The notes under the pieces are model-generated. The model did no database searches, had not been told where the DNA came from, and was given only the letters and a program-made list of their open reading frames with translations. Shown one piece after another: positions 3,760 to 56,952 of a stretch of DNA of 64,000 nucleotides. Each line of letters starts with the position of its first letter. Position 1 is the first letter of the stretch. The position numbers and the translations under genes were made by a program. Source of the DNA: Phocaeicola sp. (GTDB taxonomy: Bacteria; Bacteroidota; Bacteroidia; Bacteroidales; Bacteroidaceae). Location of the stretch: contig JAZQAG010000049.1 of NCBI GenBank assembly GCA_045545095.1, positions 1,213-65,212 on the forward strand, given 5' to 3'.

Positions 3760-3826
3760 ATCATATCTTTTATCTGAATACATACTTCTAAAAGGAAGCA
3801 TATATAAAAACTTTCATCTTTCTCTT

Positions 3827-17212: not shown

Positions 17213-17236
17213 CCTTATATACTATTTCATTCTGAA

Positions 17237-18226: not shown

Positions 18227-18236
18227 AATATTCTAT

Positions 18237-30954: not shown

Positions 30955-31440
30955 ATGATAAACCAATTAATTGACCGATACATGAATGGCCTCACCTCGC
31001 CCGAGGAGCAAAAGCGGCTGCACCGCCTGCTGATGGTCGATGATCTGCCCGAGGAGTATCTGCCCTATCGCGAAATGTTCACCCTGTTGGGTGAGCCGAT
31101 GGAGGTTCCCTCTGACAAGGAGTTGAAGGATTTTGCCCAAGCGAACCAATTGGAGGTGGCCGAGACGGAAGAAGGGCACATCATCGCCTTGCGCCCGTGG
31201 TTGCGCTACGCAGGCATTGCAGCTTCGCTCGTGCTTGTCTTCTTGGCCGGGCGATGGTCGGTTGGGGAGAATCCGAAGGTGATTGTACACGAATTGCCCG
31301 AAACGGACTTGGCACAATACAACGACCTTTTCACGACTGAGACAGGCACGACCATCGAAGAGGCGTTCAATGCTTGCGAAGAGGAAATGACAGACTTTGA
31401 ATATAATTATATAAACTCCAATCCACATGAAGAATTATAA
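30955..31440 (+). CDS. putative single-pass anti-sigma factor
   Basis: Directly follows the ECF sigma gene. The N-terminus IDRYMNGLTSPEEQKRL parallels the 56428-56946 protein. One TM (YAGIAASLVLVFLAG). Confidence 0.45.
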   Translation: MINQLIDRYMNGLTSPEEQKRLHRLLMVDDLPEEYLPYREMFTLLGEPMEVPSDKELKDFAQANQLEVAETEEGHIIALRPWLRYAGIAASLVLVFLAGRWSVGENPKVIVHELPETDLAQYNDLFTTETGTTIEEAFNACEEEMTDFEYNYINSNPHEEL

Positions 31441-32422
31441 TGAGTTACGAGTTACGAGCTACGAGCTACGAGTTACGAGCGACAAGCTACGAGTAGGGGT
31501 CATCACTGCGCTGTTGTTCCTATTGGGCTTTGGCACGGCTATGGCTCAAGAGCGGGACTTTAAGAATCGGACATTTTATGAGAATTGGGAACTCTCAAAC
31601 CTCTTCTGGGACTTGAAGCTGAATTTCTCCCAAACGTACCTCATCCGTCAGACGAACGACTGGATAATCTACGACCTGAACTATTGGTTTACAAGCGAGA
31701 AGGACAGGCTGACACGCCAGCAGTGGCCTGACCACATCTTTGCCCAATTGGACAAACTGAAGACTCTACGCAAATTTACCGAATCCATTGAAGAGAAGGG
31801 GAAATACTACAAGAAGTACACCCTCACTACGCAATCGGCTCAAGAGGGGCAAATAGACTTCGTCACGCTGGAAGTGGGAGACAACAAAGTGAGTTTTCAG
31901 TATAAAGCCAATGCTGATGTGAACGGCAAGCGTCTGCCCGTCTCCATGCCAAAGGCGAATGAGATAAAAGGGAAGATGGAGGCCCTTTACCGCCCATACA
32001 TCGCAAGGAAGAATGTCAGGGAGCAACAGGTGACCTACGACTGGAACCTCCGCAAATACCATCGGAGCATTGCGGCCGACAACACCACCAAGGTGACACG
32101 GGCCACCCGATACCGCATTCCTGCCTGCACCCAAAAGGAGTATGAGGCTGTGGTGAGACACTTCCAGCAGATACAGCAACAGTACAACGTGTTCATGGCT
32201 ACGAACGATGTCTTTTGGGAGTACGAAGAGACGGCTATCGCCTTCCGCGACGATGACGGACGCCTCCATACCTATGGCGTGGCGCTGAAGCCCGACGGCA
32301 CCCTCTATCTGATAGAGAGCCATGCAGGCGCTCTTCCCCGTCTGTGGGCCGAAGACAATGCAGTGTGGGAGGACAATGTGCGCAAGCGTCCTCATTACCG
32401 CACACCAGAAAATGAAAAATAA
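31427..32422 (+). CDS. secreted protein of unknown function (ECF operon member) with a heptamer repeat in the signal-peptide coding region
   Basis: ATG overlaps the upstream stop. MKNYNELRVTSYELRVTSDKLRVGVITALLFLLGFGTAMAQ is signal-peptide-like. No family recognised. Confidence 0.55.
   Translation: MKNYNELRVTSYELRVTSDKLRVGVITALLFLLGFGTAMAQERDFKNRTFYENWELSNLFWDLKLNFSQTYLIRQTNDWIIYDLNYWFTSEKDRLTRQQWPDHIFAQLDKLKTLRKFTESIEEKGKYYKKYTLTTQSAQEGQIDFVTLEVGDNKVSFQYKANADVNGKRLPVSMPKANEIKGKMEALYRPYIARKNVREQQVTYDWNLRKYHRSIAADNTTKVTRATRYRIPACTQKEYEAVVRHFQQIQQQYNVFMATNDVFWEYEETAIAFRDDDGRLHTYGVALKPDGTLYLIESHAGALPRLWAEDNAVWEDNVRKRPHYRTPENEK
31442..31497 (+). repeat. imperfect heptanucleotide tandem repeat (GAGYTAC x ~8) inside a CDS
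   Basis: gagttac gagttac gagctac gagctac gagttac gagcgac aagctac gagtagg, read directly from the sequence. Confidence 0.9.
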
Positions 32423-34430: not shown

Positions 34431-35126
34431 ATGGCAAAGAAAGAGAAGATAAAGAGCATGTTTGACAACATTGCCCCCGACTATGACAAGCTGAACCACA
34501 TCATGTCGCTGAACATCGACAAAGGGTGGCGCCGGAAGGCAGTGCGCGAGATGGCAGATACTGACAAGCCGCTCGCAGTGCTCGACGTGGCCTGTGGTAC
34601 GGGTGACTTCACCATCGAGATTGCACGCAAAGTGTCCAAAGGGAGCCGCATCATAGGTATCGACCTGTCAGAAGGGATGATGAAGGTGGGCCGTGAGAAG
34701 ATTGCCACCGCCCAAGTGGATGCCACATTGGAATATGGCGATTGCGAAGCCCTGACGTATGCCGATGGCACTTTTGACCGCATATCCGTAGGTTTCGGCG
34801 TGCGCAATTTCGAGCATCTGAGCATCGGACTGGAGGAGATGTGCCGCGTGTTGAAACCAGGCGGAAAACTGGTAATCTTGGAATTGTCCGTCCCCTCCAA
34901 CCCCATTATCCGTTGGTGCTACAAGCTCTACTTCCTGCACATCCTGCCAGCCATTGGTGGCATGGTGTCAGGCAATCGGGGGGCATACGAGTACCTGCCT
35001 GCATCGGTCCTTCATTTCCCTGCACCCGACAAGTTCATCCCAATGATGCGCGAGGCCGGCTTCAGCGAAGTGAAACACCAACCTCTCACTTTCGGCATTT
35101 GCAGAATGTATGTTGGAATAAAATAA
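34431..35126 (+). CDS. ubiE: demethylmenaquinone methyltransferase (UbiE/MenG)
   Basis: MFDNIAPDYDKLNHIMSLNIDKGWRR...VLDVACGTGD...GFGVRNF is a canonical UbiE/MenG pattern. Confidence 0.9.
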   Translation: MAKKEKIKSMFDNIAPDYDKLNHIMSLNIDKGWRRKAVREMADTDKPLAVLDVACGTGDFTIEIARKVSKGSRIIGIDLSEGMMKVGREKIATAQVDATLEYGDCEALTYADGTFDRISVGFGVRNFEHLSIGLEEMCRVLKPGGKLVILELSVPSNPIIRWCYKLYFLHILPAIGGMVSGNRGAYEYLPASVLHFPAPDKFIPMMREAGFSEVKHQPLTFGICRMYVGIK

Positions 35127-35251: not shown

Positions 35252-36127
35252 ATGATCAAAAACTGGATAGAGGCCATGCGCCTTCGTACACTACCCGTCA
35301 GCATGGCGGGCGTGCTTGCCGGATGTGGTTGTGCCCTGTGGCAGGACGGATTCTCCATCGTGCCGGCACTGCTTTGCCTGCTGTTTGCCCTGTCGGCACA
35401 GATTGCCTCCAACTTCGGCAATGAATACTATGATTACAAGAATGGTATGGACCGCAAGGGGCGCGAGGGGTTCCGACGCGGAGTGACTGAGGGAGACATC
35501 ACCCCGCAGGCCATGAAGCGTGCCACCTTTGCCATGTTGGGCATAGCGGCTGTCATCGGCTGTTCGTTGCTGCTGTATGGCGGCCTGTGGCTCATCCCTG
35601 TCGGTTGTGCCATCCTGTTGTTTGCCCTTGCTTACAGCGCTGGTCCCTACTCACTTTCTCATCATGGATTGGGCGATGTCACAGTAGTTGTCTTTTTCGG
35701 CATCGTCCCTGTCACCTTCACCTGCTACCTTCAGACAGGGGGATGGGAGGAATTGTCCGTACTGCTTACCACCTCCGTTGCCATCGGACTCTTGGCAGCC
35801 AATGTCCTCGTTGTGAACAATTATCGCGACATGGAAGATGATGAGGCTGTGGGGAAACGAACGACGGTTGTACTCTTCGGGCGTAAGGTCATGGGCTATG
35901 TTTATCTGCTTTCGGGCATCGCAGCTATGGCCATCATGACAGCCTTGTGGATACAGTTACCCCTATGGGCACTCATCGTTCCCATTATCTATCTGTCACT
36001 ACACATCACTACCTGGCGTAAACTTATCCACAGTCGGGGTGCTGCGCTCAACCCCCTGCTTGGGCGGACGGCTATCAACCTGCTCGTCTTCACAGTCCTG
36101 TTGCTGATGGTGTTGGCGGTAGTGTGA
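35252..36127 (+). CDS. menA: 1,4-dihydroxy-2-naphthoate polyprenyltransferase
   Basis: WIEAMRLRTLPVSMAGVLAG, NEYYDYKNG and NNYRDMEDD are UbiA-superfamily MenA motifs. Confidence 0.9.
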   Translation: MIKNWIEAMRLRTLPVSMAGVLAGCGCALWQDGFSIVPALLCLLFALSAQIASNFGNEYYDYKNGMDRKGREGFRRGVTEGDITPQAMKRATFAMLGIAAVIGCSLLLYGGLWLIPVGCAILLFALAYSAGPYSLSHHGLGDVTVVVFFGIVPVTFTCYLQTGGWEELSVLLTTSVAIGLLAANVLVVNNYRDMEDDEAVGKRTTVVLFGRKVMGYVYLLSGIAAMAIMTALWIQLPLWALIVPIIYLSLHITTWRKLIHSRGAALNPLLGRTAINLLVFTVLLLMVLAVV

Positions 36128-36133
36128 TTTTTA

Positions 36134-36823
36134 TTATACCAGCCCCCTCACCAAAAACCACAGCACGGGGACAAGCAGGGCGGGGAGCATGTTCAGCGTC
36201 TTACAATCTTTCAGTTTGAGGAGGGAAAGGCCTGAGGCGACAATCATCAGTCCGCCGACGATGAGCAACTCTGCCATGAGTGCTTCGCTGATGGCGGTAC
36301 TTGACAGCTTTGCCACCAAGTAGAACATCCCCTGCCAACAGAAGAGTACGGGTGCGGCCAGTATCATCCAAATGCCGTAGGTACTGGCAAAGACGGTGGA
36401 TGTCACCAAGTCGAGCGTGGCATTGGTATAGAGGAAGGTGTTGTCGCCCTTCAAGGCACTTATCACAGGGCCGAGCATGGCCAAGGGGCCAATGCAGTAG
36501 AGCAGGATGGCGGTGGAGAGACCGTCGGCCAAGTTGGTGTTCTTATTGCCCTTTGAACGTTTGTTTACCAAAGCGGCAAACCGCCCGTCGAGATCCAGCG
36601 CCGTGCCTACCACACTTCCGATGGCTATCGACACGATGAAGAGCACTGGGTATTCGCTCTTACCGAAGTTGCTTATCACCGCATTGAGACCGATACCCAA
36701 GCAGGCCAGCCCCAATCCAGTGTATAGCGTGTCCTTATACTTTTCCTTAATCCCTCTGTTCATTACAGCACCCACAATGCTGCCCACGATTATCGTGCAA
36801 GTGTTTACGATTGTTCCTATCAT
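36134..36823 (-). CDS. DUF554 family membrane protein
   Basis: MIGTIVNTCTIIVGSIVGAVMNRGI... and multiple TM segments. Start set to the ATG at 36823, because the longer track ORF overlaps the upstream gene. Confidence 0.7.
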   Translation of the reverse strand: MIGTIVNTCTIIVGSIVGAVMNRGIKEKYKDTLYTGLGLACLGIGLNAVISNFGKSEYPVLFIVSIAIGSVVGTALDLDGRFAALVNKRSKGNKNTNLADGLSTAILLYCIGPLAMLGPVISALKGDNTFLYTNATLDLVTSTVFASTYGIWMILAAPVLFCWQGMFYLVAKLSSTAISEALMAELLIVGGLMIVASGLSLLKLKDCKTLNMLPALLVPVLWFLVRGLV

Positions 36824-36834
36824 TTCCGGTTCAT

Positions 36835-37431
36835 TTATTGATTCTTCTTCAACCACTCCTGACGACGCAAGTCTGGCAGGTGTTTGATGTTGAAATGTTC
36901 GAATTTGGCTTTGAAACCGTTTCCATCGGGAGATGCAGCCATCAGACCAACCATAACGGGCGTATTGTCTTGAATCCAACAATTGCGCATCATGATGTAT
37001 TTCTTATCATCGAAGGAATAGAAGATTTCCACGGCATCCAATCGACGGACTGCTTTAATCCAGACAAAGGGGACAGGATGCTCAAGTTGGATGACACTCC
37101 AGTCACTCGTGTGATGAGTGACAACCGTACTGAGATTGTACTTTCCGTCCACATACTCAATACCCGTCTTGACATAGTTCTCCTTGTCCACCCGAATCAT
37201 CAGGCCAGCCTGATCAAAACGTTCTTTATATTCGCCGGAGACCTTCACCTTCACTTCGAACTCACCACCCCGCAAAGTGTAGAGGAAGGGAGCATCATCG
37301 ACAGTAAATCCGTAATGCGATATGCGCCAATAATCACTTTGGGGAGTTGCGTCTATATAAAGTGTTCCTTCCTTAATTTCCCAACTCTCAGGTTCATTGA
37401 ACCACTGCATTTTATCTAAAGAGTGTGCCAT
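36835..37431 (-). CDS. DUF1349 (concanavalin-A-like) domain protein
   Basis: MQWFNEPESWEIKEGTLYIDATPQSDYWR is the typical DUF1349 N-terminus. Confidence 0.7.
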   Translation of the reverse strand: MAHSLDKMQWFNEPESWEIKEGTLYIDATPQSDYWRISHYGFTVDDAPFLYTLRGGEFEVKVKVSGEYKERFDQAGLMIRVDKENYVKTGIEYVDGKYNLSTVVTHHTSDWSVIQLEHPVPFVWIKAVRRLDAVEIFYSFDDKKYIMMRNCWIQDNTPVMVGLMAASPDGNGFKAKFEHFNIKHLPDLRRQEWLKKNQ

Positions 37432-37495
37432 AGTTGTAGCTGCCAACAGTTTGTAACAATTAATCTACGTATCTTTTTACAGTAATTTCTGTCTG

Positions 37496-37527
37496 CAAAA
37501 ATAGCACAAGGCCATGACTTATCCAAA
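37496..37527 (-). promoter_or_regulatory. Bacteroidota-type promoter TTTG-N20-TATTTTTG for the DUF1349-DUF554 pair
   Basis: The minus strand reads tatTTTGgataagtcatggccttgtgcTATTTTTGcag, which matches the -33 TTTG / -7 TAnnTTTG consensus and spacing. Confidence 0.55.
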
Positions 37528-37544
37528 TATAAGTACTACATTCC

Positions 37545-38306
37545 TTATTTTCTTACAATCAGGATGCTGACCTCATAGAGCAGCCACATGGGGAGTGCGA
37601 CAAGCATCAGCGTAAAGACATCAGAGGTGGGAGTAATTATGGCTGCAATGATGAGCAGCACTACAATGACGTGGCGACGATAATGACTCATCAACGCGGC
37701 ATTGATGAAGCCCATACGGCCAAGCACCCAACAGATTACAGGTATCTCGAAAACTATCCCCATAGAGAGGCTTACGGTCATCAGAGTCTCCATATATGAA
37801 TCAATGGTGACGGTGTTGGCTACTACGTCACTCACCTGATAGGTTCCCAGGAAACGGAATATCAACGGGAATATCAGGTAATAGCTGAGCAGCACACCAA
37901 GCATGAACATGATGTATCCACTAACCACCAGCCGGATGGCATATTTGCGCTCATGGGTATAGAGTGCAGGGGAAATGAAATGAAAAAGCAGGTATATAAG
38001 ATAAGGAGACGTGAGCAAGATACCGGCACAGACTGAAGCCTTCACATGGAGCAGGAACTGACGCGCCAACCCGATGTTGATAAGTTGCACATCCCATGCG
38101 CCCACGTCTGACAATCCATCAGGAAACAGAGAGGCTGCAATCTGTTCCAACAAACGATAGGTGATGAAGCCGCTATCCTGTGGAGCCAGAATAATATCGA
38201 ACAACTCGTCCTTGAAGAAAAAGGAGATGACAGCGCACACCACCACTGCAACAACCATCTTTATCAGGCTGCCACGCAATTCATCAAGATGTTCCCAAAA
38301 GGTCAT
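37545..38306 (-). CDS. tatC: twin-arginine translocase subunit TatC
   Basis: MTFWEHLDELRGSLIK... and a six-TM pattern; canonical TatC. Confidence 0.9.
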   Translation of the reverse strand: MTFWEHLDELRGSLIKMVVAVVVCAVISFFFKDELFDIILAPQDSGFITYRLLEQIAASLFPDGLSDVGAWDVQLINIGLARQFLLHVKASVCAGILLTSPYLIYLLFHFISPALYTHERKYAIRLVVSGYIMFMLGVLLSYYLIFPLIFRFLGTYQVSDVVANTVTIDSYMETLMTVSLSMGIVFEIPVICWVLGRMGFINAALMSHYRRHVIVVLLIIAAIITPTSDVFTLMLVALPMWLLYEVSILIVRK

Positions 38307-38310
38307 GAGT

Positions 38311-38466
38311 TTATTTCTCTTCCTTTTCTGTCCCGTTCATTCCGTCTTTGAAGCTACGCACTCCTTTACCCAAACCTTTCATCAGTTCAGGTATCTTTTT
38401 ACCTCCAAAGAAAAGAAGAACAATCAGGGCAATAATGATAATTTCTTGAAATCCTATTCCAAACAT
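38311..38466 (-). CDS. tatA: twin-arginine translocase subunit TatA/E (51 aa, below the ORF-track cutoff)
   Basis: My own translation is MFGIGFQEIIIIALIVLLFFGGKKIPELMKGLGKGVRSFKDGMNGTEKEEK. This has a TM segment, an FGG hinge and an amphipathic helix. The stop lies 4 nt before the tatC ATG. Confidence 0.85.
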   Translation of the reverse strand: MFGIGFQEIIIIALIVLLFFGGKKIPELMKGLGKGVRSFKDGMNGTEKEEK

Positions 38467-38470
38467 GGTT

Positions 38471-38512
38471 TGATTTATGATTTGTGATTTATGATTTGTG
38501 ATTTATGATTTT
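38471..38512. repeat. heptamer tandem repeat (TGATTTR x6) immediately 5' of the tatA start codon
   Basis: tgattta tgatttg tgattta tgatttg tgattta tgatttt. The sense (minus) strand reads as G-free AAATCAY units ending 4 nt before the ATG. Confidence 0.9.
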
Positions 38513-38534
38513 ATGTTCTGACTCTGAACAACCT

Positions 38535-39884
38535 TTACAGGGTATCCTGTTTGAGGCTTTCCACGAAGCGGTCAATGCGATGCAACTGACGTGGTATATT
38601 GATGCGCTGCGGACAGTGTTTACTACACTGGTTGCACCCTATACAGTGGCTGGCCTGACGCAACTTGGGAACACTGCGGTCATAGCCCACAAGGAAAGCA
38701 CGCCTTGCTTCGCGATATTTGGGGTCCTGACTGCTTTCTGGCACATTACCTTCGTTCACACACTTGTTATAATGCAGCAGAATTGCCGGAATATCAATTC
38801 CGTAAGGACAAGGCATACAGTATTTGCAATCGTTGCACGGGATGGTGGGATACTGTTTGATCAACCGACCCGTTTCGAAAAGAAATTCTTTCTCCTCTTC
38901 CGTCAACGGCACAAGGGGCGAGTAGGTGCGTATGTTGTCCTGCAGATGCTCCATATAGGTCATGCCACTGAGCACCGTCAGTATCAGTTCCGGCGTACCG
39001 GCAAAGCGGAAGGCCCACGAGGCGACACTGCTTTCAGGACGTTGCTGTTTCAACCGCTTCACTATGTGGTCGGGCAATTTGGAGAGACGGCCTCCCAACA
39101 GCGGTTCCATGATGATACCGGGAATCTGGTACTTTTCCAATGACTCGTAAAGACCTTTGGCATTGGAGCCATGCCAATCCACGTAGTTAAGCTGTATCTG
39201 CACAAAATCCCAATGATACTGGTCGTGCAGGGCCAACAACTCATCAAACACCTCCTGCGATCCATGGAACGAAAAGCCCAAACGGCGGATGCGTCCGGCC
39301 TTGCGCTCCTCCATCAGGAAGTCCATCATGCCATTATCCACAAACCGTTTGCGGAAATTGTCCATTCCACCACCGCCCAAAGAGTGCAACAGGTAATAGT
39401 CAATATACTCCACCTGCAGTTCTTCAAAAGAACGCCGGTACATGGCCAACGAATTCTCTCGCGAAGAATTGGAGAAGTTGGACAACTTGGTGGCAATGTA
39501 GTACGACTCACGCGGATGTCTTTTAAGGGCGATGCCCGTAGCCTTTTCCGACTTGCCTTGTACATAGACCGGTGCTGTATCGAAATAGTTGACCCCATGT
39601 GCAAGGGCATAGTCCACCAGATCGTTCACCGCATCCTGGTCGATGATATCCCCCTTCCCTTCCGGATTGGGCATTGTAGGCCAACGCATACAGCCGTATC
39701 CCAATATCGAGACATTATCGTCTCCCAATCCCGGAAAACGGCGACAAGTCATCTTGTCTGTCGGGACAGGCCCCAACTCACTGCCGGTCACATCAGTTTC
39801 CGCCTTCCGTTTGCACCCGCACAACGCGGCTGCCCCAGCGGCTGTGCCCAGTCCCATTATCTTTAAGAAATCGCGTCTGTTCAT
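38535..39884 (-). CDS. aldo/keto reductase with C-terminal 4Fe-4S domain, carrying a twin-arginine signal and lipobox
   Basis: MNRRDFLKIMGLGTAAGAAALCGC (Tat motif plus Cys). AKR core (LGYGCMRWP, GVNYFDTAPVY, IATK, HSLGG). The C-terminus has CNDCKYCMPCP and CIGCNQCSKHCP. Start set to the ATG at 39884. Confidence 0.8.
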   Translation of the reverse strand: MNRRDFLKIMGLGTAAGAAALCGCKRKAETDVTGSELGPVPTDKMTCRRFPGLGDDNVSILGYGCMRWPTMPNPEGKGDIIDQDAVNDLVDYALAHGVNYFDTAPVYVQGKSEKATGIALKRHPRESYYIATKLSNFSNSSRENSLAMYRRSFEELQVEYIDYYLLHSLGGGGMDNFRKRFVDNGMMDFLMEERKAGRIRRLGFSFHGSQEVFDELLALHDQYHWDFVQIQLNYVDWHGSNAKGLYESLEKYQIPGIIMEPLLGGRLSKLPDHIVKRLKQQRPESSVASWAFRFAGTPELILTVLSGMTYMEHLQDNIRTYSPLVPLTEEEKEFLFETGRLIKQYPTIPCNDCKYCMPCPYGIDIPAILLHYNKCVNEGNVPESSQDPKYREARRAFLVGYDRSVPKLRQASHCIGCNQCSKHCPQRINIPRQLHRIDRFVESLKQDTL

Positions 39885-39935
39885 ATCTCTATGTTCCATA
39901 CTTTGTTCTTCATTCCATTTCCACAGTTCCATCTC

Positions 39936-41444
39936 CTAAATCTCCCGATGTCTCTCGTGTCCCTCCACATATATGGCACTGAAGGGACGGGCCGGACAGA
40001 GATGCTCACAAGCCCCACAACCGATACACCGCTCTGTATTGATGGCCGGTATCTTGGGCGAACGCTTGTCACCCTCCACCGAGGGAATCATCTGTATGGC
40101 TCCCGTGGGACAATGGCGGGCACAGTTGCCACAAGGCTGTCCGTCAGTCAGAGGAATACAGTTCTTCTTCACCCATACGGCATGCCCTATTTGGGTAGAG
40201 GACTTGTCTTCACGGGTGATCGGACGGATGGCACCGGTGGGACACACATCCGAGCATTTGGTACATTCCGGCCTGCAATAGCCACGCTCATACCTCATCT
40301 CGGGCTGCATCAGCCTTGTCAAATCTGTAGAGGGAACAAGCACCCCGTTGGGGCACACCGACACACAAAGCTGGCAGGCAGTACAGTGTTGGGCAAAATG
40401 GCGGGCGCTCCATGCTCCGGGAGGCACCAGATGGGTTTGTCTGTCAGGCACCACCTTGTCCACGATGGTTGCCAGTCCGCCATCCACCTTCATTTCCTGC
40501 GCCTTAATGGCTGCCGTGGCCGTCGCCACGGCAGTTGTCGCCAGGAAGGTGCGTCGGGACGTATCTCCCACGTGCAACGAGTCTTGGGTTGCAGCCCCAT
40601 CCCCTACAGGCTGTTGGTGATTCTTCACGACAGCTCTTCTATAGCTGATGGCCCCGCGTTTGCATTTGTCCAAACAGTCCATGCAAGCCACGCAGCGACT
40701 GTAGTCTATCCGGTGTTCCTTACTATTGATGCAAGCCGCCTTGCAATTGCGGGCACACAGTCCACATCCATTACATTTGTTGGTGTCAATCACAGGCTTC
40801 AGCCACGAAAAGCGTGCGATGAAGCCCAATACCGTACCGACCGGACAAATGGTGTTGCAATATGTACGTCCACCACGCCAAGCCAATATACCTATTATTA
40901 ATAATGTAGCCACAGCGACTCCGAATGTCGTTGCGCTCCTTATCCATACCTCTGTTCCGTAAAAAGCATAACTGTCTGCCCGCTCAGCCAAATAGGCCAA
41001 TCCATTGTTGCCCCACTGCCAAAGCGGAGCCAACAGGCTATGGGCAATACGCCCGTAGGCACTGTAGGGGGCCAGCAATTTGGCCAATATGCCTCCACCT
41101 GCGAGCAACGACACAATAAAAAGAAGCAGCATGATGTAGCGCAACCACCTCTTCTCGGCCGAGTAGGCATACCGGTTCTTCTTGGCCTTCTTTCCCAGCC
41201 AGGCAAAGATATCCTGCATCACGCCCAATGGACAGATGACCGAACAATAGACTCTTCCAAACAATGCAGTCAGCAAGACCAACATGACCACCACTCCTAC
41301 ATTCAGGGCAAGCAGGGCCGGCAAGAACTGGATTTTGGCCATCCAACCGAACCAAGCATGCAACGTTCCCGTAAAATCCAGAAACAGCATCGTTATGGCT
41401 ACATAGAAAATGATGGCAAGGGCTACTCTAATTTTTCGCAACAT
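39936..41444 (-). CDS. membrane polyferredoxin: NapH-like module (TMs, 2x CX3CP, 2x 4Fe-4S) fused to a NapG-like 4x[4Fe-4S] module through an internal twin-arginine segment
   Basis: CSVICPLG and CNTICPVG. CNGCGLCARNC and CVACMDCLDKC. An internal TSRRTFLATTAVATATAAIKAQE segment. Then CTACQLCVSVCP, CRPECTKCSDVCP, CGNCARHCP and CIGCGACEHLCP. Start set to the ATG at 41444 (MLRKIRVALAIIFYV). Confidence 0.72.
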   Translation of the reverse strand: MLRKIRVALAIIFYVAITMLFLDFTGTLHAWFGWMAKIQFLPALLALNVGVVVMLVLLTALFGRVYCSVICPLGVMQDIFAWLGKKAKKNRYAYSAEKRWLRYIMLLLFIVSLLAGGGILAKLLAPYSAYGRIAHSLLAPLWQWGNNGLAYLAERADSYAFYGTEVWIRSATTFGVAVATLLIIGILAWRGGRTYCNTICPVGTVLGFIARFSWLKPVIDTNKCNGCGLCARNCKAACINSKEHRIDYSRCVACMDCLDKCKRGAISYRRAVVKNHQQPVGDGAATQDSLHVGDTSRRTFLATTAVATATAAIKAQEMKVDGGLATIVDKVVPDRQTHLVPPGAWSARHFAQHCTACQLCVSVCPNGVLVPSTDLTRLMQPEMRYERGYCRPECTKCSDVCPTGAIRPITREDKSSTQIGHAVWVKKNCIPLTDGQPCGNCARHCPTGAIQMIPSVEGDKRSPKIPAINTERCIGCGACEHLCPARPFSAIYVEGHERHREI

Positions 41445-41696
41445 GGTATTTGTGTTTATTTTTTCAATACAAGTTTTCCACATGGTGATACCAACAAAGT
41501 GGGTATCATTTCGCAAAAGTATATTCTTTTTCTCAAAAAAACGATTTTTTCAAGATAAATGTACAGCCTTTTGTCCAATTTATTTAATTTTCTCTCCTCC
41601 ACAATACAAATAGGAAAAAATCCAAACTGCATTTTTGACGTTCAAGAAACGGAGAAGGGCTCTTTTGCCAATATTTTCGGATTAAATCCGACAAGC

Positions 41697-41715
41697 GTGT
41701 CCAATTTTTGGACAC
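41697..41715. promoter_or_regulatory. perfect palindrome GTGTCCAA-TTT-TTGGACAC upstream of the first TlpA-like gene
   Basis: 8-bp arms read directly from the sequence. A second palindrome, tcggatt-a-aatccga, lies at 41677-41691. Confidence 0.4.
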
Positions 41716-41813
41716 TTTTAAGTCGAAAAAGACGATTTAACAAATTTTTAGTCCCTTCTTCTTGCATAATCCTATAACTTTGAAACCAAAAATAACAACA
41801 GCATAAAAAGACT

Positions 41814-43754
41814 ATGAGAAAGAAAAGTATTATTTTGTTGGCCGCAGTGCTGCTCGTGGCCGGTGGTCAGGCATCAGCCTTCAAGAAGCAGTTCAAGGAT
41901 GTAGAATGGCTGAACAGCAATGTCGGCAATGCAGAAATCACCCACGTGATGCTGACCGACACGGCCACCATCGTCACCTTCCACAAGCACGACACAAACA
42001 ATGGCATCCGCTTTGACCGGGCCACCTGCCTCGTGGACGACAAAGGCAAGGAGTACCGCATCATGCGCAGCCAAGGAATCCCCGACGAGAAGTTCGACCA
42101 ATTCTTCCCAAAGACAGCCAACGAGGCGAACGACTTCAAACTGCTGTTCGAACCTCTGCCCAAGAAGACTCCTTTCTTTGATCTGATAGAGGGGAGAAAA
42201 TCCGGTGACTTCCGAATCTTAGGCATACACGATGCCAAGAAGCCTATCGGGATTCCTACCTTCGTGGATACAGTGAGTGTGCCACAGGACTTCATCCGCA
42301 CGGACACCGTCTGCCTGTGCGGACAGATTGAGGGATACTCGCGCGACATGGGGTTCAATACCATGCAACTCTATCTGGGGAACGAACTGACAGGCGAGGA
42401 CACGCCCAAAGCCATCGATGTGCAGGAAGACGGGACATTCGAAATCAAGTTTGTCGATTTTTATCCCAAGGAGCTCTATTTCTCTATCCGCACGGAAAAC
42501 CTCTATCAGCCAATCAGTGCCTATCTGGTGCCAGGATGCACCACCGTGATCAACATCCACAAGGACTGGACGATAGACTATAAAGGCTCTGACGAGGAGG
42601 TGCTGCGTTGCGAAAGGCTGATAATGAGTGGAACGGACTACATGAACAGCTATCAGTACAGGGACTATGAAAAAGATAAGGAGGCGCTGTCGTTTGCAGA
42701 GATGCAGGAAAAACTGATGGGACTGGCCAAGACCAACGAAAAGGCTGTGGATTACATAGCCTGGCGCAACGGTTTCAATCCATGGGAGCGGCACTTGGCA
42801 CACGTGTGGAACAAGTTACGCCATGCCCGGTGGATTATGGAGTACATCATGGATGCCCGGTTTGCAACCTACCGAAAAGTGACGGGTGAAGACAGCATCC
42901 GGGCCTATAAGAGGTTGGCCGATGTGACCGATGCGGCCAATTGGGGATTCTTCAGGGAATTGCCCTACAACGATGTCTCTTCACTGACCAGCAATGACAT
43001 AAGCATTATGCTGAACCGCTATGAATTTGCGCCGGTGCTGGACGAAGCCTTCAGGCTCCTCATAGTGAAAGCCGACTATGAAGCAAGCAAAGACAGTACC
43101 ATACTGGCCAACGACATGAAGGTGACAGGAGCAGACAGCCCCTCGCTATGGGGAAAGATTGTCGTACTGAGAAAGACGGAGAACAATCTCAAAAACTTCC
43201 GGAAGGAAAAGGAGGAACAGAAGAGGTTGGTGGAACTCCGCCGCGAGACATTGGAGCATCCCGGCCTGCAGGCCAATCTCGACCGCCTCTACGCCAAGGA
43301 GCTGGAGCGGCAGACACTCATCTACAGCCTGCCCGATACAGAAGCAACCCGTATCCTGCGCCGCATGACGGACAAATACAGGGGGAAATACCTGCTCATT
43401 GACTTCTGGGGAATGGGATGCGGCCCCTGCCGGAGCGCCATCGAACACTCCAAGGAGTTGCGCAAGACCTTCAGACTCCATCCCGAGGTGGATTTCCTCT
43501 TCATCGCGGCACCTGAGTCAACCGAAGAGGCATACAACAACTACGTGAAGGAGAACCTCGATGGGGAGGACTGCCACCTCATCACCCGCGACGAATACAA
43601 CAAACTGATGGAACTCTTCCAGTTCAATGGCATTCCCCACTACGAAACGCTGGACAAGAACGGTAACGTGGTGCGCGAAGGACTGGAGTACTGCCTCTAC
43701 GATACCAACACATTTACCGAGAAACTGAAAGAACTGAAAAATAGATTAGAATAA
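41814..43754 (+). CDS. TlpA/ResA-like thioredoxin-fold thiol:disulfide oxidoreductase, paralog A (large N-terminal extension)
   Basis: Signal peptide MRKKSIILLAAVLLVAGGQASA. The C-terminal thioredoxin domain has LIDFWGMGCGPCRS and FQFNGIPHY. Confidence 0.75.
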   Translation: MRKKSIILLAAVLLVAGGQASAFKKQFKDVEWLNSNVGNAEITHVMLTDTATIVTFHKHDTNNGIRFDRATCLVDDKGKEYRIMRSQGIPDEKFDQFFPKTANEANDFKLLFEPLPKKTPFFDLIEGRKSGDFRILGIHDAKKPIGIPTFVDTVSVPQDFIRTDTVCLCGQIEGYSRDMGFNTMQLYLGNELTGEDTPKAIDVQEDGTFEIKFVDFYPKELYFSIRTENLYQPISAYLVPGCTTVINIHKDWTIDYKGSDEEVLRCERLIMSGTDYMNSYQYRDYEKDKEALSFAEMQEKLMGLAKTNEKAVDYIAWRNGFNPWERHLAHVWNKLRHARWIMEYIMDARFATYRKVTGEDSIRAYKRLADVTDAANWGFFRELPYNDVSSLTSNDISIMLNRYEFAPVLDEAFRLLIVKADYEASKDSTILANDMKVTGADSPSLWGKIVVLRKTENNLKNFRKEKEEQKRLVELRRETLEHPGLQANLDRLYAKELERQTLIYSLPDTEATRILRRMTDKYRGKYLLIDFWGMGCGPCRSAIEHSKELRKTFRLHPEVDFLFIAAPESTEEAYNNYVKENLDGEDCHLITRDEYNKLMELFQFNGIPHYETLDKNGNVVREGLEYCLYDTNTFTEKLKELKNRLE

Positions 43755-43779
43755 TCGGTTGCGGCAAAATGCCATTCAA

Positions 43780-43972
43780 AAAAAGCAGAATTTAAACTTT
43801 ACTTTTGCCGCAAAGATACGCTTATATAATATATAGGTGTCTAAAAATTAGACATTCTGGCATCGGAAACAGACGTTTTTTGACTTTACCCTTGGAGGAG
43901 AGATGGGAAACGACTATTTTTGCCACAAAGAAGAGTACCAGGAAAAGTAAGACAAACAAAGATATAGAAATT
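43780..43972 (+). repeat. 193-bp leader cassette, copy 1 (partner at 52648-52840)
   Basis: Aligns without gaps to 52648-52840, with about ten mismatches by eye. Homology continues about 45 nt into the CDS. Confidence 0.9.
43838..43854. promoter_or_regulatory. palindrome TGTCTAA-AAA-TTAGACA in leader copy 1
   Basis: 7-bp arms, with the same half-site architecture as 41697-41715. Confidence 0.4.
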
Positions 43973-46141
43973 ATGAGAAAGAAAAGCATCCTGATGGCGG
44001 TGCTGGCGATGGCCGCCATTGTATGGGCACAGCCCACCGTTGCACAGAAACGAACCGAAAGTACGGTGATTGAGAATCCACAGTTCAGTGTAAGCAATAC
44101 GGGCACACTCACCATCGACCGGGTGGAACTGTTACCGGACTCTACCCGCCTGCACATGACGGCCTATCACAGTCCGCGCAGTTGGGTGCACATTGCCCGC
44201 GAGACTTACATACGGGTAAAAGGCGAGAAGCTGACAATGACCTCGGCCGAGGGCATCACGCCCGATAAGGAGTTTTACTCGGACGAGACGAACCAGACGC
44301 ACTTCGTGCTGAACTTTCCCGCTGTGGCCGCTGATGCACAGACACTGGACTTCTATGAAAGCGATTGCGAGGATTGCTTCAAGTTTTGGGATGTGGCACT
44401 GACCCCTGAGGCACAACAGATAGCGGTTTCTACTCCGGCAGACATTCAGGCTTGGGCAAATATCCCTGATGACGGCAAACCATTGGTGACACCCACTTGG
44501 AAATCGGGAAAGGCTACGGTGAAGGGCTTCATCCGAGGGTACAAGCCTGAGATGGGAAAGGAAATAATTGTCTATTACGATAATCCTGTGACTGGCATAC
44601 AGGAGATGCACGGGATAGGAATAAAACCTGACGGCACATTCAATGCCAGTATCCCTATTGCCACAACAGATGCCAGTGTTTTCGCCAGAATGCCGAATTC
44701 CACCATTTCTTTCCTCATCGCCGAAGGCCAAGAGGTGGAAATGTACATAGACAGGGTAGCGGAGGTTCACCAGAGAATACCAAACAAGGCTTTGCAAACC
44801 CAGCAGCAACAGACCATTTTCTTCCGTGGAGTACATGCCGACATCAACAACTGTTTGCAGACAGAAGAGGCAAAGTCATTCGACACCCACATCCCGACCA
44901 AGAAGTATCTGAAGGATATTGCAGACATGAGTCTTGAAGAATACAAAAGCTATTACATGGATTTTTACCAGAAACAGTTGGCGGTTATGGAGGAGCTACC
45001 TTTCTCCAGTAAGATGAAGGAATTCCTTGGATTGGAGTTGAAGCAATATATCAGCCATTTTCTGTTCTTCGGAGACATGCACTTGGAGAGTGCTTTCCGC
45101 CAAAAGCACAATTTGGGCAGGAGGGACACACTCAAAGGCTATAACACCCCCGTCTTTACTGAAAAGTACTATTCGTTCCTGAAGGAACTGGACATGAATA
45201 ATCCCAAAAACCTGCTTCATTCGGAATTTTCAAACAATGTGAACAGCTGCAAGTTCATCAACTATAATCTGTACGATTACAACGCACTCATGCACTCCAC
45301 AACAGCCAAAGAGTTTCTGAAGGAGAAGACGCTGAACCGTGAGGAAAAGAAACTGATGAAGAAGATAAGCGGTGTAAAGACCATGCAGGAGTTCCGAGAA
45401 CTTCTAAATAGAGATGAAGCATCGGCATCGACATGGAAGAATATGCAAGAGAGGTTCTATGATCTGATGAAAGGGCAACGTATCCCATTACAGATACAGA
45501 CGGCAGCCAAACTGATGGGTACGAAGAAGAGCATTGTGTTCGACCTGATGGCAGCACAAACCCTATGCGCCCCGTTGGAAGAGAAAATGCCTATCCCCGA
45601 AGAGGACTTCCATAAAGCCGAACAGTTGGAGAATCCTTTCTTTGCCGAATACATGAGAGAAAAGAATGCCGAACTGGCCGCCGAACTTGAAGCGCAGAAG
45701 CAGAAGGGAGGCTACACCATACACCAGGCAGGAGAGAGTCTGGGCGAAGCCCTATTGGTAGATATCGTGCAACAGTTCAAGGGGAAAGTAATCTTCATCG
45801 ATCTATGGGCCACCTGGTGCGGTCCTTGCCGTTCGGCCATGACACGGTTTGAACCGATAAAAGAGAAGTTGCAAGAGTTGAAGGGTAAGGACTTGGCTTT
45901 CGTCTATCTGACCGACGAGAGCTCTCCCGAAAAGGCATGGAAAAACATGATTCCCAACATCAAAGGCGAGCACTACCGCCTCAGCAACTCCCAACTGGGC
46001 AGTCTGAAACTGATGTTCAACTTCACCGGCATCCCCTCGTACCTCATTGTAAGCAAAGAGGGAAAAGTTGTCTATTCACATGTCGGTTTCGAAGGTAACG
46101 AGAAGATTGCACGACTCCTGATAGAAGAGTTGAAGAAATAA
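43973..46141 (+). CDS. TlpA-like thioredoxin-fold oxidoreductase, paralog B
   Basis: Signal peptide MRKKSILMAVLAMAAIVWAQP. C-terminal FIDLWATWCGPCRS and FNFTGIPSY. Start set to the ATG at 43973; the track TTG start at 43805 lies in the leader. Confidence 0.75.
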   Translation: MRKKSILMAVLAMAAIVWAQPTVAQKRTESTVIENPQFSVSNTGTLTIDRVELLPDSTRLHMTAYHSPRSWVHIARETYIRVKGEKLTMTSAEGITPDKEFYSDETNQTHFVLNFPAVAADAQTLDFYESDCEDCFKFWDVALTPEAQQIAVSTPADIQAWANIPDDGKPLVTPTWKSGKATVKGFIRGYKPEMGKEIIVYYDNPVTGIQEMHGIGIKPDGTFNASIPIATTDASVFARMPNSTISFLIAEGQEVEMYIDRVAEVHQRIPNKALQTQQQQTIFFRGVHADINNCLQTEEAKSFDTHIPTKKYLKDIADMSLEEYKSYYMDFYQKQLAVMEELPFSSKMKEFLGLELKQYISHFLFFGDMHLESAFRQKHNLGRRDTLKGYNTPVFTEKYYSFLKELDMNNPKNLLHSEFSNNVNSCKFINYNLYDYNALMHSTTAKEFLKEKTLNREEKKLMKKISGVKTMQEFRELLNRDEASASTWKNMQERFYDLMKGQRIPLQIQTAAKLMGTKKSIVFDLMAAQTLCAPLEEKMPIPEEDFHKAEQLENPFFAEYMREKNAELAAELEAQKQKGGYTIHQAGESLGEALLVDIVQQFKGKVIFIDLWATWCGPCRSAMTRFEPIKEKLQELKGKDLAFVYLTDESSPEKAWKNMIPNIKGEHYRLSNSQLGSLKLMFNFTGIPSYLIVSKEGKVVYSHVGFEGNEKIARLLIEELKK

Positions 46142-46151
46142 ACTAAAAACT

Positions 46152-47360
46152 ATGAAAAGAAAGAAAAGTATGCTGATGGCGGCACTGGTGATGGCCGCCG
46201 CAAGCCTGATGTCATTTGTAAGTGCATCGGAGGAAGAAACAATCGTAATTGAGGGAAAGCTGACCAATGTGCCAGACAGCATAGTATTGAGCCTGACCGA
46301 ATGGGACGGGAATGTGGGAGATTGTGTGGCCACCGATACAGTGATAAATGGTAAGTTCCTGTTCGAGATAAAGACCGATATCAAAGAAGTACATCCAACC
46401 AGCATCAATTGCGATGCTTTCGGATTTTCGACTTCTGATTTCTTATGGATAGAACCGGGTGCCAAGGTGAAGATTACAGGCGATGGTCTGGACTACTCGG
46501 CATGGAAAATCAAAAGCAACGTGGCGGTGCAGAAGACTGAGAACCGTTTCCGCAAAGCTTCGGAAGAGGCATATAGCCAATTGTATCAAATAGAGACCGA
46601 ACTCTATACCATGACGGAAGCCAACGACAAAGGGAAGCGTTCCGACGAAGAAATCCAAAAGGTACGCGCCCGCATGAATGAATTGAACAAGTTACAAAGA
46701 AATGTCCGTTCGGAAATACACAACAAGGAAAATGCCCTGCTCCCCGACATTACCCCCGACGAAGCATGGCTTACCCGACTATATCAACTTTCACGCGCAG
46801 GCAGTTTCACCAATGACACGCTGAAACTTGCCCAAGCCAAAGAGCAATACGCACGTATGGACGAGCGGCTGAAGGCCACTTTCCACGGACAAGGCATCAC
46901 GACTTACCTCTTCCCCTTCAAAGTGGTGAAGGTGGGCGATATGATTCCCAATCTTGAATTGAAAGACACATCAGGTAATACCCACCGTCTGCAGGAACTG
47001 AAGGGGAAATATATCCTGCTCGACTTTTGGAGCAGCGGTTGTGCCCCTTGCATCGCAAGTTTTCCTGAACTGAAGACCCTCTCAGAACAGATGAAGGAGA
47101 AGATAGCGGTGGTAAGCGTCAGCGAAGATGGCGAAGAGATGTGGCGCAAAACCTCTGCCAAACACAGCATCACATGGAACAATTGGAACGACCTGAAGCA
47201 CAACAACGGCATCTTTGCCCACTTCGGAATACGCACCATCCCGCACTACTTCCTTATTTCGCCTGAAGGAAAGATTATTGCGACAGATATAGGTTACAGC
47301 AAAGGCAGCCTCTTCAAGTTTGTGAAAAAGACTATTGCAGAACATAACAAACAAGAATAA
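46152..47360 (+). CDS. TlpA-like oxidoreductase, paralog C (DUF4369-like N-domain + helical linker + thioredoxin)
   Basis: IVIEGKLTNVPDS..., LLDFWSSGCAPC, FGIRTIPHY. 10 nt after paralog B. Confidence 0.75.
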   Translation: MKRKKSMLMAALVMAAASLMSFVSASEEETIVIEGKLTNVPDSIVLSLTEWDGNVGDCVATDTVINGKFLFEIKTDIKEVHPTSINCDAFGFSTSDFLWIEPGAKVKITGDGLDYSAWKIKSNVAVQKTENRFRKASEEAYSQLYQIETELYTMTEANDKGKRSDEEIQKVRARMNELNKLQRNVRSEIHNKENALLPDITPDEAWLTRLYQLSRAGSFTNDTLKLAQAKEQYARMDERLKATFHGQGITTYLFPFKVVKVGDMIPNLELKDTSGNTHRLQELKGKYILLDFWSSGCAPCIASFPELKTLSEQMKEKIAVVSVSEDGEEMWRKTSAKHSITWNNWNDLKHNNGIFAHFGIRTIPHYFLISPEGKIIATDIGYSKGSLFKFVKKTIAEHNKQE

Positions 47361-47362
47361 CC

Positions 47363-48556
47363 ATGATGAAAAGAAAGAAAAGCATTCTGATGGCGGTGCT
47401 GATGATGACCATCGCAAGCATGATACCCTGCAAGGCACAAGAGGCAAACGTATCCATTAAAGGGAAACTGACCAATGTGCCTGACAGCCTGTATCTCTAC
47501 ATCGTAGAGTTCGATAATCAAAGAGGAAGTACTACGGCACGTGGGGTCATGGCAAAGGGAGAACTTTCATTTGAATTCAAAACGAGAATAAACACTCCCC
47601 ATTTAGCGACTATCCGTAATCACGAAATAGGATTCAAGCCATTGCACCTCATGTGGATAGAGCCTGGTGCACAGGTAAGAATTACGGGCGATGGATTGGA
47701 TTATTCCACATGGAAAATCGAAAGTAATGTCAAAGCACAACAAAATGAAAACCGATTTCGGGAAGCAACCCAAAAGGAAGAAAGCAAACGGCACCAATTG
47801 AATATGGAAATCTGTCGTTTAGAGGAACTATATGGGAAAGCACAAGACCAACGGGAAATAAAGCAGAAATTGATAGAACTCAGCAAACAATCGGATAGTA
47901 TCTTCTATACAACCAAGGAGCGAGTATTGCCTTTGCTTGAAGAGCTTCCTGTAGATGAAGCATGGATGTTACGTCTGTTTGATAACAGTCAGACAAAAGA
48001 AATGAGTCCCCATCGCCGCAAGAATCTTATCGCATTAAGCCAACGCATGAATGAAGAACAAAAAAGTTCCTATTTTGGTAGAGCCATAATAACAAATCTC
48101 AATCCACCTCAATCTGTGACTATTGGACAGGAAATTCCAAATATTGTTTTGAAAGATACGTTAGGCAATCCCCACCGTCTACAGGAGTTACAAGGAAAAT
48201 ACCTGCTATTGGATTTCTGGAGTAGTGCTTGTGCCCCTTGCATCAAAAGTTTGCCCGAACTGAAGGAGATAGCCGAGGCTTTCAAAGATAATCTGACTAT
48301 AGTCAGTATTAGTAGCGACCCTGAAACAGCATGGAAACGAGCTTCTCGGAAATACTCCCTTACAGGCCACAACTGGAACGACCTACAGGGAAGCAACGGT
48401 ATCTTTGCCCAATTTGGAATAGAAGGAACCCCTACATATCTCCTACTTTCCCCAGACGGGAAATTGATAGGTAAAGAAACGGGATATAAATATGGATTCC
48501 TCTTCAAGTTCGTGAAAGAGACTATTGCGGGACTTAAAAAAGTGAGAAAAGAATAA
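47363..48556 (+). CDS. TlpA-like oxidoreductase, paralog D
   Basis: SIKGKLTNVPDS..., LLDFWSSACAPC, FGIEGTPTY. 2 nt after paralog C. Lipobox-like MIPC. Confidence 0.75.
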   Translation: MMKRKKSILMAVLMMTIASMIPCKAQEANVSIKGKLTNVPDSLYLYIVEFDNQRGSTTARGVMAKGELSFEFKTRINTPHLATIRNHEIGFKPLHLMWIEPGAQVRITGDGLDYSTWKIESNVKAQQNENRFREATQKEESKRHQLNMEICRLEELYGKAQDQREIKQKLIELSKQSDSIFYTTKERVLPLLEELPVDEAWMLRLFDNSQTKEMSPHRRKNLIALSQRMNEEQKSSYFGRAIITNLNPPQSVTIGQEIPNIVLKDTLGNPHRLQELQGKYLLLDFWSSACAPCIKSLPELKEIAEAFKDNLTIVSISSDPETAWKRASRKYSLTGHNWNDLQGSNGIFAQFGIEGTPTYLLLSPDGKLIGKETGYKYGFLFKFVKETIAGLKKVRKE

Positions 48557-56946: not shown

Positions 56947-56952
56947 AGAGTT

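Follow-up and report, generated by a model that had tools for sequence, protein, structure and literature searches.

A fused NapH-NapG-like polyferredoxin and a predicted Tat-exported iron-sulfur aldo-keto reductase as a candidate periplasmic redox module of Bacteroidales

The four-gene locus and its two iron-sulfur proteins

The DNA examined here is a 64,000-nt stretch of Phocaeicola sp. (assembly GCA_045545095.1, contig JAZQAG010000049.1, positions 1,213-65,212), referred to as the window, together with a list of its open reading frames (ORFs) and their translations. Four co-directional ORFs on the minus strand occupy 37545-41444, as the initial annotation had stated. They encode a polytopic polyferredoxin (PFD), an iron-sulfur (Fe-S) aldo-keto reductase (AKR) and the TatA and TatC components of the twin-arginine translocation (Tat) system. 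The features of the locus are as follows.

39936-41444, minus strand: PFD, polytopic polyferredoxin, a NapH-like/NapG-like fusion of 502 amino acids (aa) from the ATG; alternative TTG start at 41516
40620-41444, minus strand: NapH-like half of PFD, aa 1-275 (TIGR02163, NF007013, Fer4_5 twice, hydropathy)
40500-40556, minus strand: internal twin-arginine motif of PFD, S-R297-R298-T-F-L, with a weak fifth transmembrane domain (TMD5), TFLATTAVATATAAI, and Lys residues (Pfam TAT_signal, conservation)
39939-40457, minus strand: NapG-like domain of PFD, predicted periplasmic, aa 330-502 (NF007012, TIGR00397, TIGR00402; four four-Cys motifs)
38535-39884, minus strand: AKR, predicted Tat-exported Fe-S aldo-keto reductase lipoprotein, 449 aa (Pfam, AlphaFold2, Foldseek)
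39813-39884, minus strand: predicted Tat signal peptide of AKR, from M-N-R3-R4-D-F-L-K to the lipobox L21-C22-G23-C24 (motif conservation)
38865-39752, minus strand: (alpha/beta)8 barrel of AKR, aa 45-340 (tetrad and dinucleotide-site motifs, profile alignment)
38538-38852, minus strand: C-terminal helical two-cluster domain of AKR (Fer4_9, Fer4_17, Fer4_8; eight Cys)
38311-38466, minus strand: tatA, 51 aa (TIGR01411, 63.6 bits against a cut-off of 53.9)
37545-38306, minus strand: tatC, 253 aa (TIGR00945, 181.8 bits against a cut-off of 132.7)

The ATG of PFD at 41444 is supported because its orthologs begin with MLRKIR. The start of AKR is ambiguous: further in-frame ATGs lie at 39932 and 39899, and a database protein 99% identical to AKR is annotated with 465 aa (an exact-sequence look-up of the window AKR gave no match). 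The gap between the PFD stop and the AKR start is therefore 3-51 nt; AKR does follow PFD closely, but the annotated distance of about 50 nt is not fixed. Both tat genes exceed their NCBIfam cut-offs and come directly after AKR, as annotated.

PFD has the layout of NapH in its first half and that of NapG in its second, as previously proposed from its motifs. Pfam found Fer4_5 (PF12801) twice and many Fer4 and other 4Fe-4S families. Inside the protein, aa 295-312 matched TAT_signal at 19.5 bits, under the cut-off of 22.7. Among the NCBIfam hidden Markov models the top matches were NapH/MauN for aa 46-269 and NapG/NapF/MauM for aa 294-485. For the first half, TIGR02163 gave an E-value of 6.3e-24 (84.9 bits against a curated cut-off of 213.05) and NF007013 one of 3.6e-22 (78.8 against 234). 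The second half matched NF007012 NapG at 7.2e-19 (67.9 bits against 269), TIGR00397 at 1.1e-16 (61.1 against 178.85) and TIGR00402 NapF at 6.6e-21, also under its cut-off. Since the NapH and NapG models come out on top but far under their curated cut-offs, the relationship is homology at the superfamily level and not membership.

Four TMDs in the first half are strongly hydrophobic (aa 7-25, 44-62, 103-121 and 170-188; Kyte-Doolittle peaks 2.1-2.7). CX3CP motifs follow helix 2 (C67/C71) and helix 4 (C196/C200). Ahead of R297-R298 come two four-Cys motifs, C224-C234 and C251-C261, for which a cytoplasmic location is predicted, and with these the NapH/MauN layout is complete. Past the twin-arginine motif, four conserved [4Fe-4S] motifs (C354-C364, C390-C401, C429-C445 and C473-C483) complete that of NapG/MauM. 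The segment TFLATTAVATATAAI directly after the arginine pair stays under 1.0 in a 19-residue hydropathy window, and Lys residues then follow. In an alignment of 65 orthologs from related loci, all 28 motif Cys residues (those of the two CX3CP and six four-Cys motifs) were at least 98% conserved and the arginine pair was kept in 91-97%; the Cys residues of the NapG-like domain were invariant in alignment A3. The PDB holds no NapG or NapH structure.

A NapH-NapG fusion with an arginine pair right before a weakly hydrophobic last TMD, followed by positive charges, has been described. Excerpts of Tooke 2017 (PMC5449189) present such polytopic polyferredoxins as a family inserted by Sec and Tat together: in reporter fusions Sec was needed for the first helices and Tat for the last, and what drove the hand-over was that the last helix is weakly hydrophobic and has positive charges behind it. 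Because the architecture is the same, PFD is of an already known kind, and we infer from its sequence that its C-terminal domain is translocated by Tat. The example in those excerpts, from the delta-proteobacterium MLMS-1, shares with the window protein the NapH-NapG fusion, five TMDs, the arginine pair before a weakly hydrophobic TMD5, the positive charges and the C-terminal polyferredoxin domain, a likeness of described architecture and not of aligned sequence. The excerpts treat membrane insertion only and assign no physiological partner or function; for this family they name Chloroflexi, Nitrospirae, Euryarchaeota, a delta-proteobacterium and Latescibacteria, with 'Bacteroidetes' given for another family only.

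The second protein was assigned by Pfam to PF00248 (aa 62-331, 3.8e-34, 118.5 bits against a cut-off of 24), with Fer4_9 over aa 350-427 and additional matches to Fer4_17 and Fer4_8. Its cluster cysteines are C350, C353, C356 and C359, and C414, C417, C420 and C424. The N-terminus, N-R-R-D-F-L-K followed by a hydrophobic region and L-C-G-C24, reads as a Tat lipoprotein signal, and the TAT_signal match at aa 1-20 (22.0 bits) lies just under the 22.7 cut-off. All four annotated attributes (AKR fold, RRDFLK Tat signal, lipobox and C-terminal double Fe-S motif) were recovered in this way. An AlphaFold2 model had a mean predicted local distance difference test score of 89, with residues 9-36 (signal peptide and linker) disordered, and Foldseek searches of the PDB with this model returned AKRs only, at a target-normalised TM-score of ~0.75. 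The predicted structure thus confirmed the AKR superfamily fold (PF00248). A solved structure with the Fe-S tail of AKR was not found in the PDB.

The absence of NAD(P)H from the periplasm had led the initial annotation to propose an AKR scaffold driven by quinol-derived electrons. This is not established. The tetrad D102, Y107, K133 and H167 is present in the window protein and is 90-100% conserved in both clades when 30 Tat-type and 58 signal-less forms are compared. Also conserved are the dinucleotide-site motifs S205, Q231, N233, E260-P261 (E260-P261-L-x-G-G), G264-G265 and L305-S-G-M(-T)...N317, which match the cofactor-lining ones of AKR11C1 and Kv-beta-type AKRs; a Tyr stands in place of the Arg with which many AKRs bind the 2'-phosphate. 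The family profile aligned over the whole barrel with AKR11C1 (PDB 1ynp, deposited just as 'oxidoreductase') at E = 1e-30, and several L-galactose dehydrogenases and other AKRs, including Kv-beta subunits, came next. The structure prediction that had been suggested as a check gives a confident model, and the sequence of AKR bears the nicotinamide-pocket motifs with no sign of their loss. As the pocket is apparently kept, operation of AKR without its cofactor cannot be taken as given.

Conservation of the gene pair and its accessory genes

Linkage was determined in one genome each of 80 Bacteroidales species whose AKR is 51-81% identical to that of the window, by searching their ORFs with the window proteins. 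The sample includes Bacteroides cellulosilyticus DSM 14838, Parabacteroides hominis, Alistipes, Muribaculaceae, Prevotellaceae, Paludibacteraceae and Rikenellaceae. Two loci are cut by a contig edge, leaving 78 informative ones. The counts were as follows.

PFD directly upstream of AKR: 72 of 80 loci
PFD directly downstream of AKR: 1 of 80 loci
PFD within about 1.5 kb of AKR: 3 of 80 loci
Uninformative (contig edge): 2 of 80 loci
PFD absent: 2 of 80 loci
tatA or tatC within 8 kb: 32 of 80 loci
TM1506 present: 24 of 80 loci
Protein with five transmembrane segments (5-TM protein) present: 23 of 80 loci

PFD adjoins AKR in 73 of the informative loci and adjoins it or lies near it in 76. The pairing is not a matter of chance, which bears out the functional link drawn between the two genes in the initial annotation. 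The arginine pair was found in 74 of 79 AKR orthologs from these loci and the lipobox in at least 70, so that the annotated picture of an exported AKR linked to the polyferredoxin extends across Bacteroidales. For tatA or tatC, the 32 of 80 loci observed compare with about 0.4% of cases in which a locus present once in a 4 Mb genome would be expected this close to AKR. In a relative with 85% identity, PFD, AKR, TM1506, the 5-TM protein, tatA and tatC occur together, and the flanking genes are unrelated to those of the window.

No other family occurred in more than seven of the 80 loci when their flanking ORFs were clustered all against all. Neither a conserved terminal reductase, cytochrome or polysaccharide utilization locus gene was found beside AKR in these loci, nor a NapA, NosZ or cytochrome partner among the conserved neighbour families. 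A Pfam scan of the 38 window ORFs likewise gave no nap, nos or other classical reductase, in agreement with what had been noted from the sequence.

When cluster representatives were searched exhaustively, 877 clusters of AKR relatives were obtained at E <1e-30, in which two classes can be told apart. Members of the first are ~440-490 aa long, with alignments that start at residue 1-2 and an xRRxFLK motif after which a lipobox usually comes. Those of the second are ~370-380 aa long, begin near query residue 55 and have no signal peptide. In 23 diverse Tat-type AKRs R3, R4 and all eight C-terminal Cys are invariant, and the eight Cys are 100% conserved in the cytoplasmic, signal-less clade as well. 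Cytoplasmic COG1453-type Fe-S AKRs (Iyer et al. 2011, PMC3239186) share with the window protein the barrel, the eight-Cys tail and the conserved residues at 36-43% identity, and accessory genes in many relatives, whereas the window clade adds the Tat signal, the lipobox and a ~45-residue linker and has a transmembrane polyferredoxin as its partner. Tat-type AKRs at greater distance (35-45% identity) also occur with PFD, in the order AKR before PFD in three loci (L085, L094 and L103) and PFD before AKR in two (L088 and L118); one lies beside tatC-tatA without PFD.

Some loci hold more than one AKR. In three of them the Tat-type AKR is directly followed by a divergent Fe-S AKR paralog of ~385 aa that has no signal peptide (L011:3383-4546, L026:9393-10544 and L121:3303-4457), and two Tat-type AKRs stand in tandem in L033. 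The L137 group and several other metagenome 'Tat' matches were discounted as stop-to-stop ORF artefacts, L137 representing 383-aa signal-less forms.

The composition given in the initial annotation matches the window, from which TM1506 and the 5-TM protein are both absent, but it overlooked these two recurrent accessory genes. Iyer et al. 2011 (PMC3239186) found that TM1506/DUF1893 genes of Firmicutes and Bacteroidetes share operons with genes for an aldo/keto reductase and a 5-TM protein. In their account TM1506 has a deaminase-like fold and is ADP-ribosylated, NAD or ADP-ribose is the suggested ligand, and a regulatory role in membrane transport is proposed; the Cys-rich AKR tail is read as a zinc ribbon, and export and PFD are not mentioned. 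In three proteins (P0122, L042:7959-9794 and L043:7971-9824) we found TM1506 fused C-terminally to a Tat-type AKR. These fusions, which are new here, are ~610 aa long and consist of a Tat signal, the AKR barrel, the two-cluster domain and TM1506/DUF1893. Three other variants, all adjoining a PFD-AKR pair, are TM1506 fused to a TonB-dependent receptor (L129:7100-9574), TM1506 fused to DUF362 behind a lipoprotein signal (L078:5073-6476) and a tandem-domain lipoprotein (L082:508-1386). Most stand-alone copies have no signal peptide; in view of the AKR-TM1506 fusions, stand-alone TM1506 may be a Tat hitchhiker co-exported with AKR. The 5-TM protein weakly matches the model of the substrate-specific (S) component of energy-coupling factor (ECF) transporters, below the Pfam cut-off, and no relative of it was found in the PDB.

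In many relatives the TM1506 and 5-TM genes lie in the gap between AKR and tatA. In the window this gap measures 68 nt from the AKR stop to the tatA start and contains a perfect 14-nt tandem repeat, TGATTTATGATTTG, in 2.9 copies (38471-38511). PDB 9e9a, named just 'DUF1893 domain-containing protein', is a second solved DUF1893 structure besides TM1506 (1vk9), and a ligand present there would be relevant to the nature of the cofactor.

The accessory genes bear on a reading in which the locus serves nutrient or cofactor salvage: AKR would modify an imported nucleotide- or vitamin-like ligand of TM1506 in the periplasm, the 5-TM protein would act in uptake as an ECF-S-like component, and PFD would only supply or remove electrons. 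The frequency of both genes beside AKR, the AKR-TM1506 fusions, the receptor fusion in L129, the lipoprotein signals in L078 and L082 and the weak ECF match speak for it, as do the operon and the NAD/ADP-ribose binding argued in Iyer et al. 2011 (PMC3239186). However, the window and more than half of the species loci have neither accessory gene near the pair, the ECF match stays below its cut-off, most TM1506 genes are without a signal peptide and the ligand of TM1506 is a proposal. We consider salvage quite unlikely.

Kv-beta subunits are themselves AKRs and appear among the profile matches, and TM1506 has been given a regulatory role in membrane transport (Iyer et al. 2011, PMC3239186). AKR and TM1506 could accordingly be a redox sensor that regulates a channel or transporter, the 5-TM protein, by redox state and performs no metabolic catalysis. 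The 5-TM gene is absent from the window and from most loci, though, the catalytic tetrad is fully retained, and a transmembrane polyferredoxin with six clusters would be an unlikely accessory of a sensor. Such a role seems extremely improbable.

Electron transfer between the quinone pool and the aldo-keto reductase

PFD and AKR probably trade electrons with the respiratory quinone pool. We assign a probability of roughly 55% to the reading that they form a two-protein, Tat-assembled periplasmic redox module which couples an Fe-S AKR-type enzyme to menaquinone. The Fe-S domains of both proteins would fold and gain their clusters in the cytoplasm and then cross the membrane by Tat, often encoded in the same operon, and AKR would be anchored to a membrane through its lipid and a linker of roughly 20-30 residues, disordered in the model. 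The electron path would connect quinol or quinone at the NapH-like part with a substrate in the AKR barrel, by way of four NapG-like and two AKR clusters. The precedent of NapGH makes us lean towards a flow from menaquinol to substrate, in which AKR would be a terminal reductase or a detoxifying one and act on a periplasmic compound of carbonyl or quinone type; flow from substrate to menaquinone is nearly as likely. A nucleotide-like cofactor or a small-molecule substrate is what the evidence points to.

The closest known systems are NapGH of E. coli and Wolinella succinogenes, which serves periplasmic nitrate reductase as quinol dehydrogenase, and its relatives NosGH and MauMN, which provide the top NCBIfam matches to the two halves of PFD. 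Like PFD, they combine a membrane part of four TMDs, two CX3CP motifs and two cytoplasmic [4Fe-4S] sites with a Tat-targeted periplasmic partner that has four such sites. Unlike them, PFD carries both parts in one polypeptide and scores far below their cut-offs, and its partner is an Fe-S AKR, with no NapA/B/C, NosZ or methylamine dehydrogenase at hand. Flavinylated NapH-like systems such as NosR and PceC (Meheust et al. 2021, PMC8238504) also have the PF12801 membrane Fe-S conduit between a membrane pool and varied extracytosolic enzymes. In those the extracytosolic relay is an ApbE-flavinylated FMN-binding domain, whereas here it is the NapG-like four-cluster domain; neither an ApbE gene nor an FMN-binding domain was seen in the module. 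The same authors describe NapH-like proteins as modular conduits 'to reductases or from oxidases'.

Several points weigh against coupling of AKR to menaquinone through PFD. No quinol site is recognisable in PFD, so the quinone link is drawn by analogy, and the NapH and NapG models to which the analogy appeals score far below their curated cut-offs. All steps of the mechanism are read from sequence. A [4Fe-4S] cluster carries one electron, while the AKR site works by hydride transfer from nicotinamide; the coupling of the clusters to a dinucleotide pocket is unexplained, and no flavin-binding domain or other two-electron/one-electron converter was detected in the module. Lastly, three distant Tat-type AKRs (L087, L089 and L096) have no PFD within 6 kb, which means that AKR can work alone or with other partners. 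The pairing is strongly conserved yet not obligatory across the whole clade.

The direction of electron flow is where a periplasmic dehydrogenase has to be considered. AKR would then oxidise, for example, an aldose, alcohol or aldehyde freed by periplasmic glycoside hydrolases, and menaquinone would carry the electrons received via PFD to fumarate reductase. In the profile search the solved proteins nearest to AKR were AKR11C1 and then several L-galactose dehydrogenases and other AKRs. Among the distant Tat-type AKRs, one lies beside alpha-L-fucosidase and SusC/D genes and another between genes for a glycoside hydrolase of family GH31 and a glycosidase-aldose-1-epimerase fusion, and in one case a cytoplasmic member adjoins uxuA and mannitol-dehydrogenase-family genes. 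The energetics also favour this direction, since by standard potentials the oxidation of aldoses to menaquinone is downhill and the reduction of simple carbonyls by menaquinol is uphill. However, characterised NapGH and NosGH act as quinol dehydrogenases. The glycoside hydrolase contexts are weak because such genes are ubiquitous in Bacteroidales, and the conserved neighbours in the 80 loci include neither glycoside hydrolase nor sugar-metabolism genes. Extracytosolic oxidases, ExaA for one, are also among the partners of NapH-like conduits (Meheust et al. 2021, PMC8238504). The problem of passing from hydride to single electrons is the same as for the menaquinone-coupled module in general. 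As a reading in its own right, the periplasmic dehydrogenase seems rather unlikely.

The nicotinamide pocket allows for an enzyme with no need of PFD. Tat exports folded, cofactor-loaded proteins, and the glucose-fructose oxidoreductase (GFOR) of Zymomonas mobilis, which is exported with bound NADP, shows that a periplasmic enzyme with an NAD(P) site is feasible. AKR could likewise leave the cytoplasm with tightly bound NAD(P) and shuttle hydride between two periplasmic substrates, its clusters and PFD being structural, sensing or unrelated. Conservation of the tetrad and dinucleotide motifs, the GFOR precedent and the existence of Tat-type AKRs without PFD fit such an enzyme. The known protein differs, having a Rossmann GFO/IDH/MocA fold without Fe-S clusters, lipid anchor or membrane electron conduit. 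In addition, the eight Fe-S Cys of AKR are invariant across both clades, and the proximity of PFD and AKR in nearly all informative loci as well as in distant lineages argues for electron exchange. Consequently, we hold a self-contained enzyme of this type to be very improbable.

Within the reading preferred here, that of a menaquinone-coupled module, a more specific form can be put forward tentatively and with considerable doubt. In it the AKR barrel would do genuine respiratory work, as a terminal reductase or as a primary dehydrogenase of the periplasm, and exchange electrons with menaquinone via eight [4Fe-4S] clusters and independently of soluble NAD(P)H. Before Tat export it would be loaded with a dinucleotide-type cofactor that is non-exchangeable; TM1506 would be a co-exported partner or a cofactor-handling subunit.

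Neighbouring genes and meaning for Bacteroidales

The menaquinone genes ubiE (34431-35126) and menA (35252-36127), to which the initial annotation had drawn attention, were confirmed on the strand opposite to the four-gene set. Their proximity is coincidental, however, because a MenA gene occurs in just one of the 80 related loci and a UbiE gene in none, and a linkage of menaquinone genes to the module was rejected on these counts. On the same strand as the module, DUF1349 (36835-37446) and DUF554 (36134-36982) genes follow tatC after a gap of ~100 nt; they are not conserved neighbours. Six plus-strand genes in 41814-48556, 49828-50889 and 52673-54454 encode large proteins with a C-terminal TlpA/AhpC-type thioredoxin fold and a CGPC-type motif. 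The first of them is divergent from the PFD operon, a neighbourhood that just one of the 80 loci shows; in L001-L004 tatC is followed by a DsbH-like thioredoxin gene unrelated to these. The cluster in the window is interrupted by an AAA_14/DUF4143 ATPase gene (48690-49814). A gene of the same family (L085:924-2216) lies just upstream of a distant Tat-type AKR, probably by coincidence.

Farther away, the window contains a gene for a protein with a HipA-like C-terminal domain, a toxin-type kinase (50937-51887), and type IX secretion genes at 2593-7570, namely PorV (2593-3801) and a C25 peptidase family member of 1247 aa that is probably PorU-like (3827-7570). Long ORFs with no Pfam match at E <=1e-5 lie at 10887-13592 (901 aa), 17183-18253 (356 aa), 31427-32422 (331 aa) and 56319-57368 (349 aa); the reality of the 356-aa ORF is uncertain because a 329-aa ORF overlaps it on the other strand. 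In 37000-42200 an Rfam search for a riboswitch or other cofactor-sensing leader gave two matches at chance level only. A scan for sigma-70 promoters and terminators did not exceed the expectation from shuffled sequence, the tool used being one that does not cover Bacteroidetes promoters.

The initial annotation knew of no characterised system of this composition. The fused PFD has in fact been described already (Tooke 2017, PMC5449189, in excerpts), but for the pair the claim stands as far as these excerpts and the other literature searched go: neither a Tat-exported or Fe-S AKR nor a PFD-AKR pair was found described. The parts are known separately, the fused PFD as an insertion model and AKR-TM1506-5TM as a gene context. 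The module is best filed as a modular NapH-like extracytosolic electron-transfer system with an unprecedented catalytic partner. It raises the chemical question of how a scaffold for hydride transfer works together with one-electron clusters.

The module occurs in at least 80 species, among them the cultured Bacteroides cellulosilyticus DSM 14838 and Parabacteroides hominis. Bacteroidales are the dominant group in gut and rumen communities, and their known periplasmic redox enzymes are few. The module is often encoded with the only tatAC of the cell, which suggests that it is a principal Tat client in these bacteria. If our reading is correct, fused NapH-NapG polyferredoxins, so far studied for membrane insertion only, would have a physiological partner. 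We found no characterised member of the Fe-S AKR family or of DUF1893/TM1506, and the module would provide a first functional handle on both. In the more specific form, with the barrel as a respiratory enzyme, it would also be the first case of an AKR wired to a respiratory chain, and would amount to an energy or detoxification pathway that is widespread in gut and rumen Bacteroidales and has gone unrecognised.

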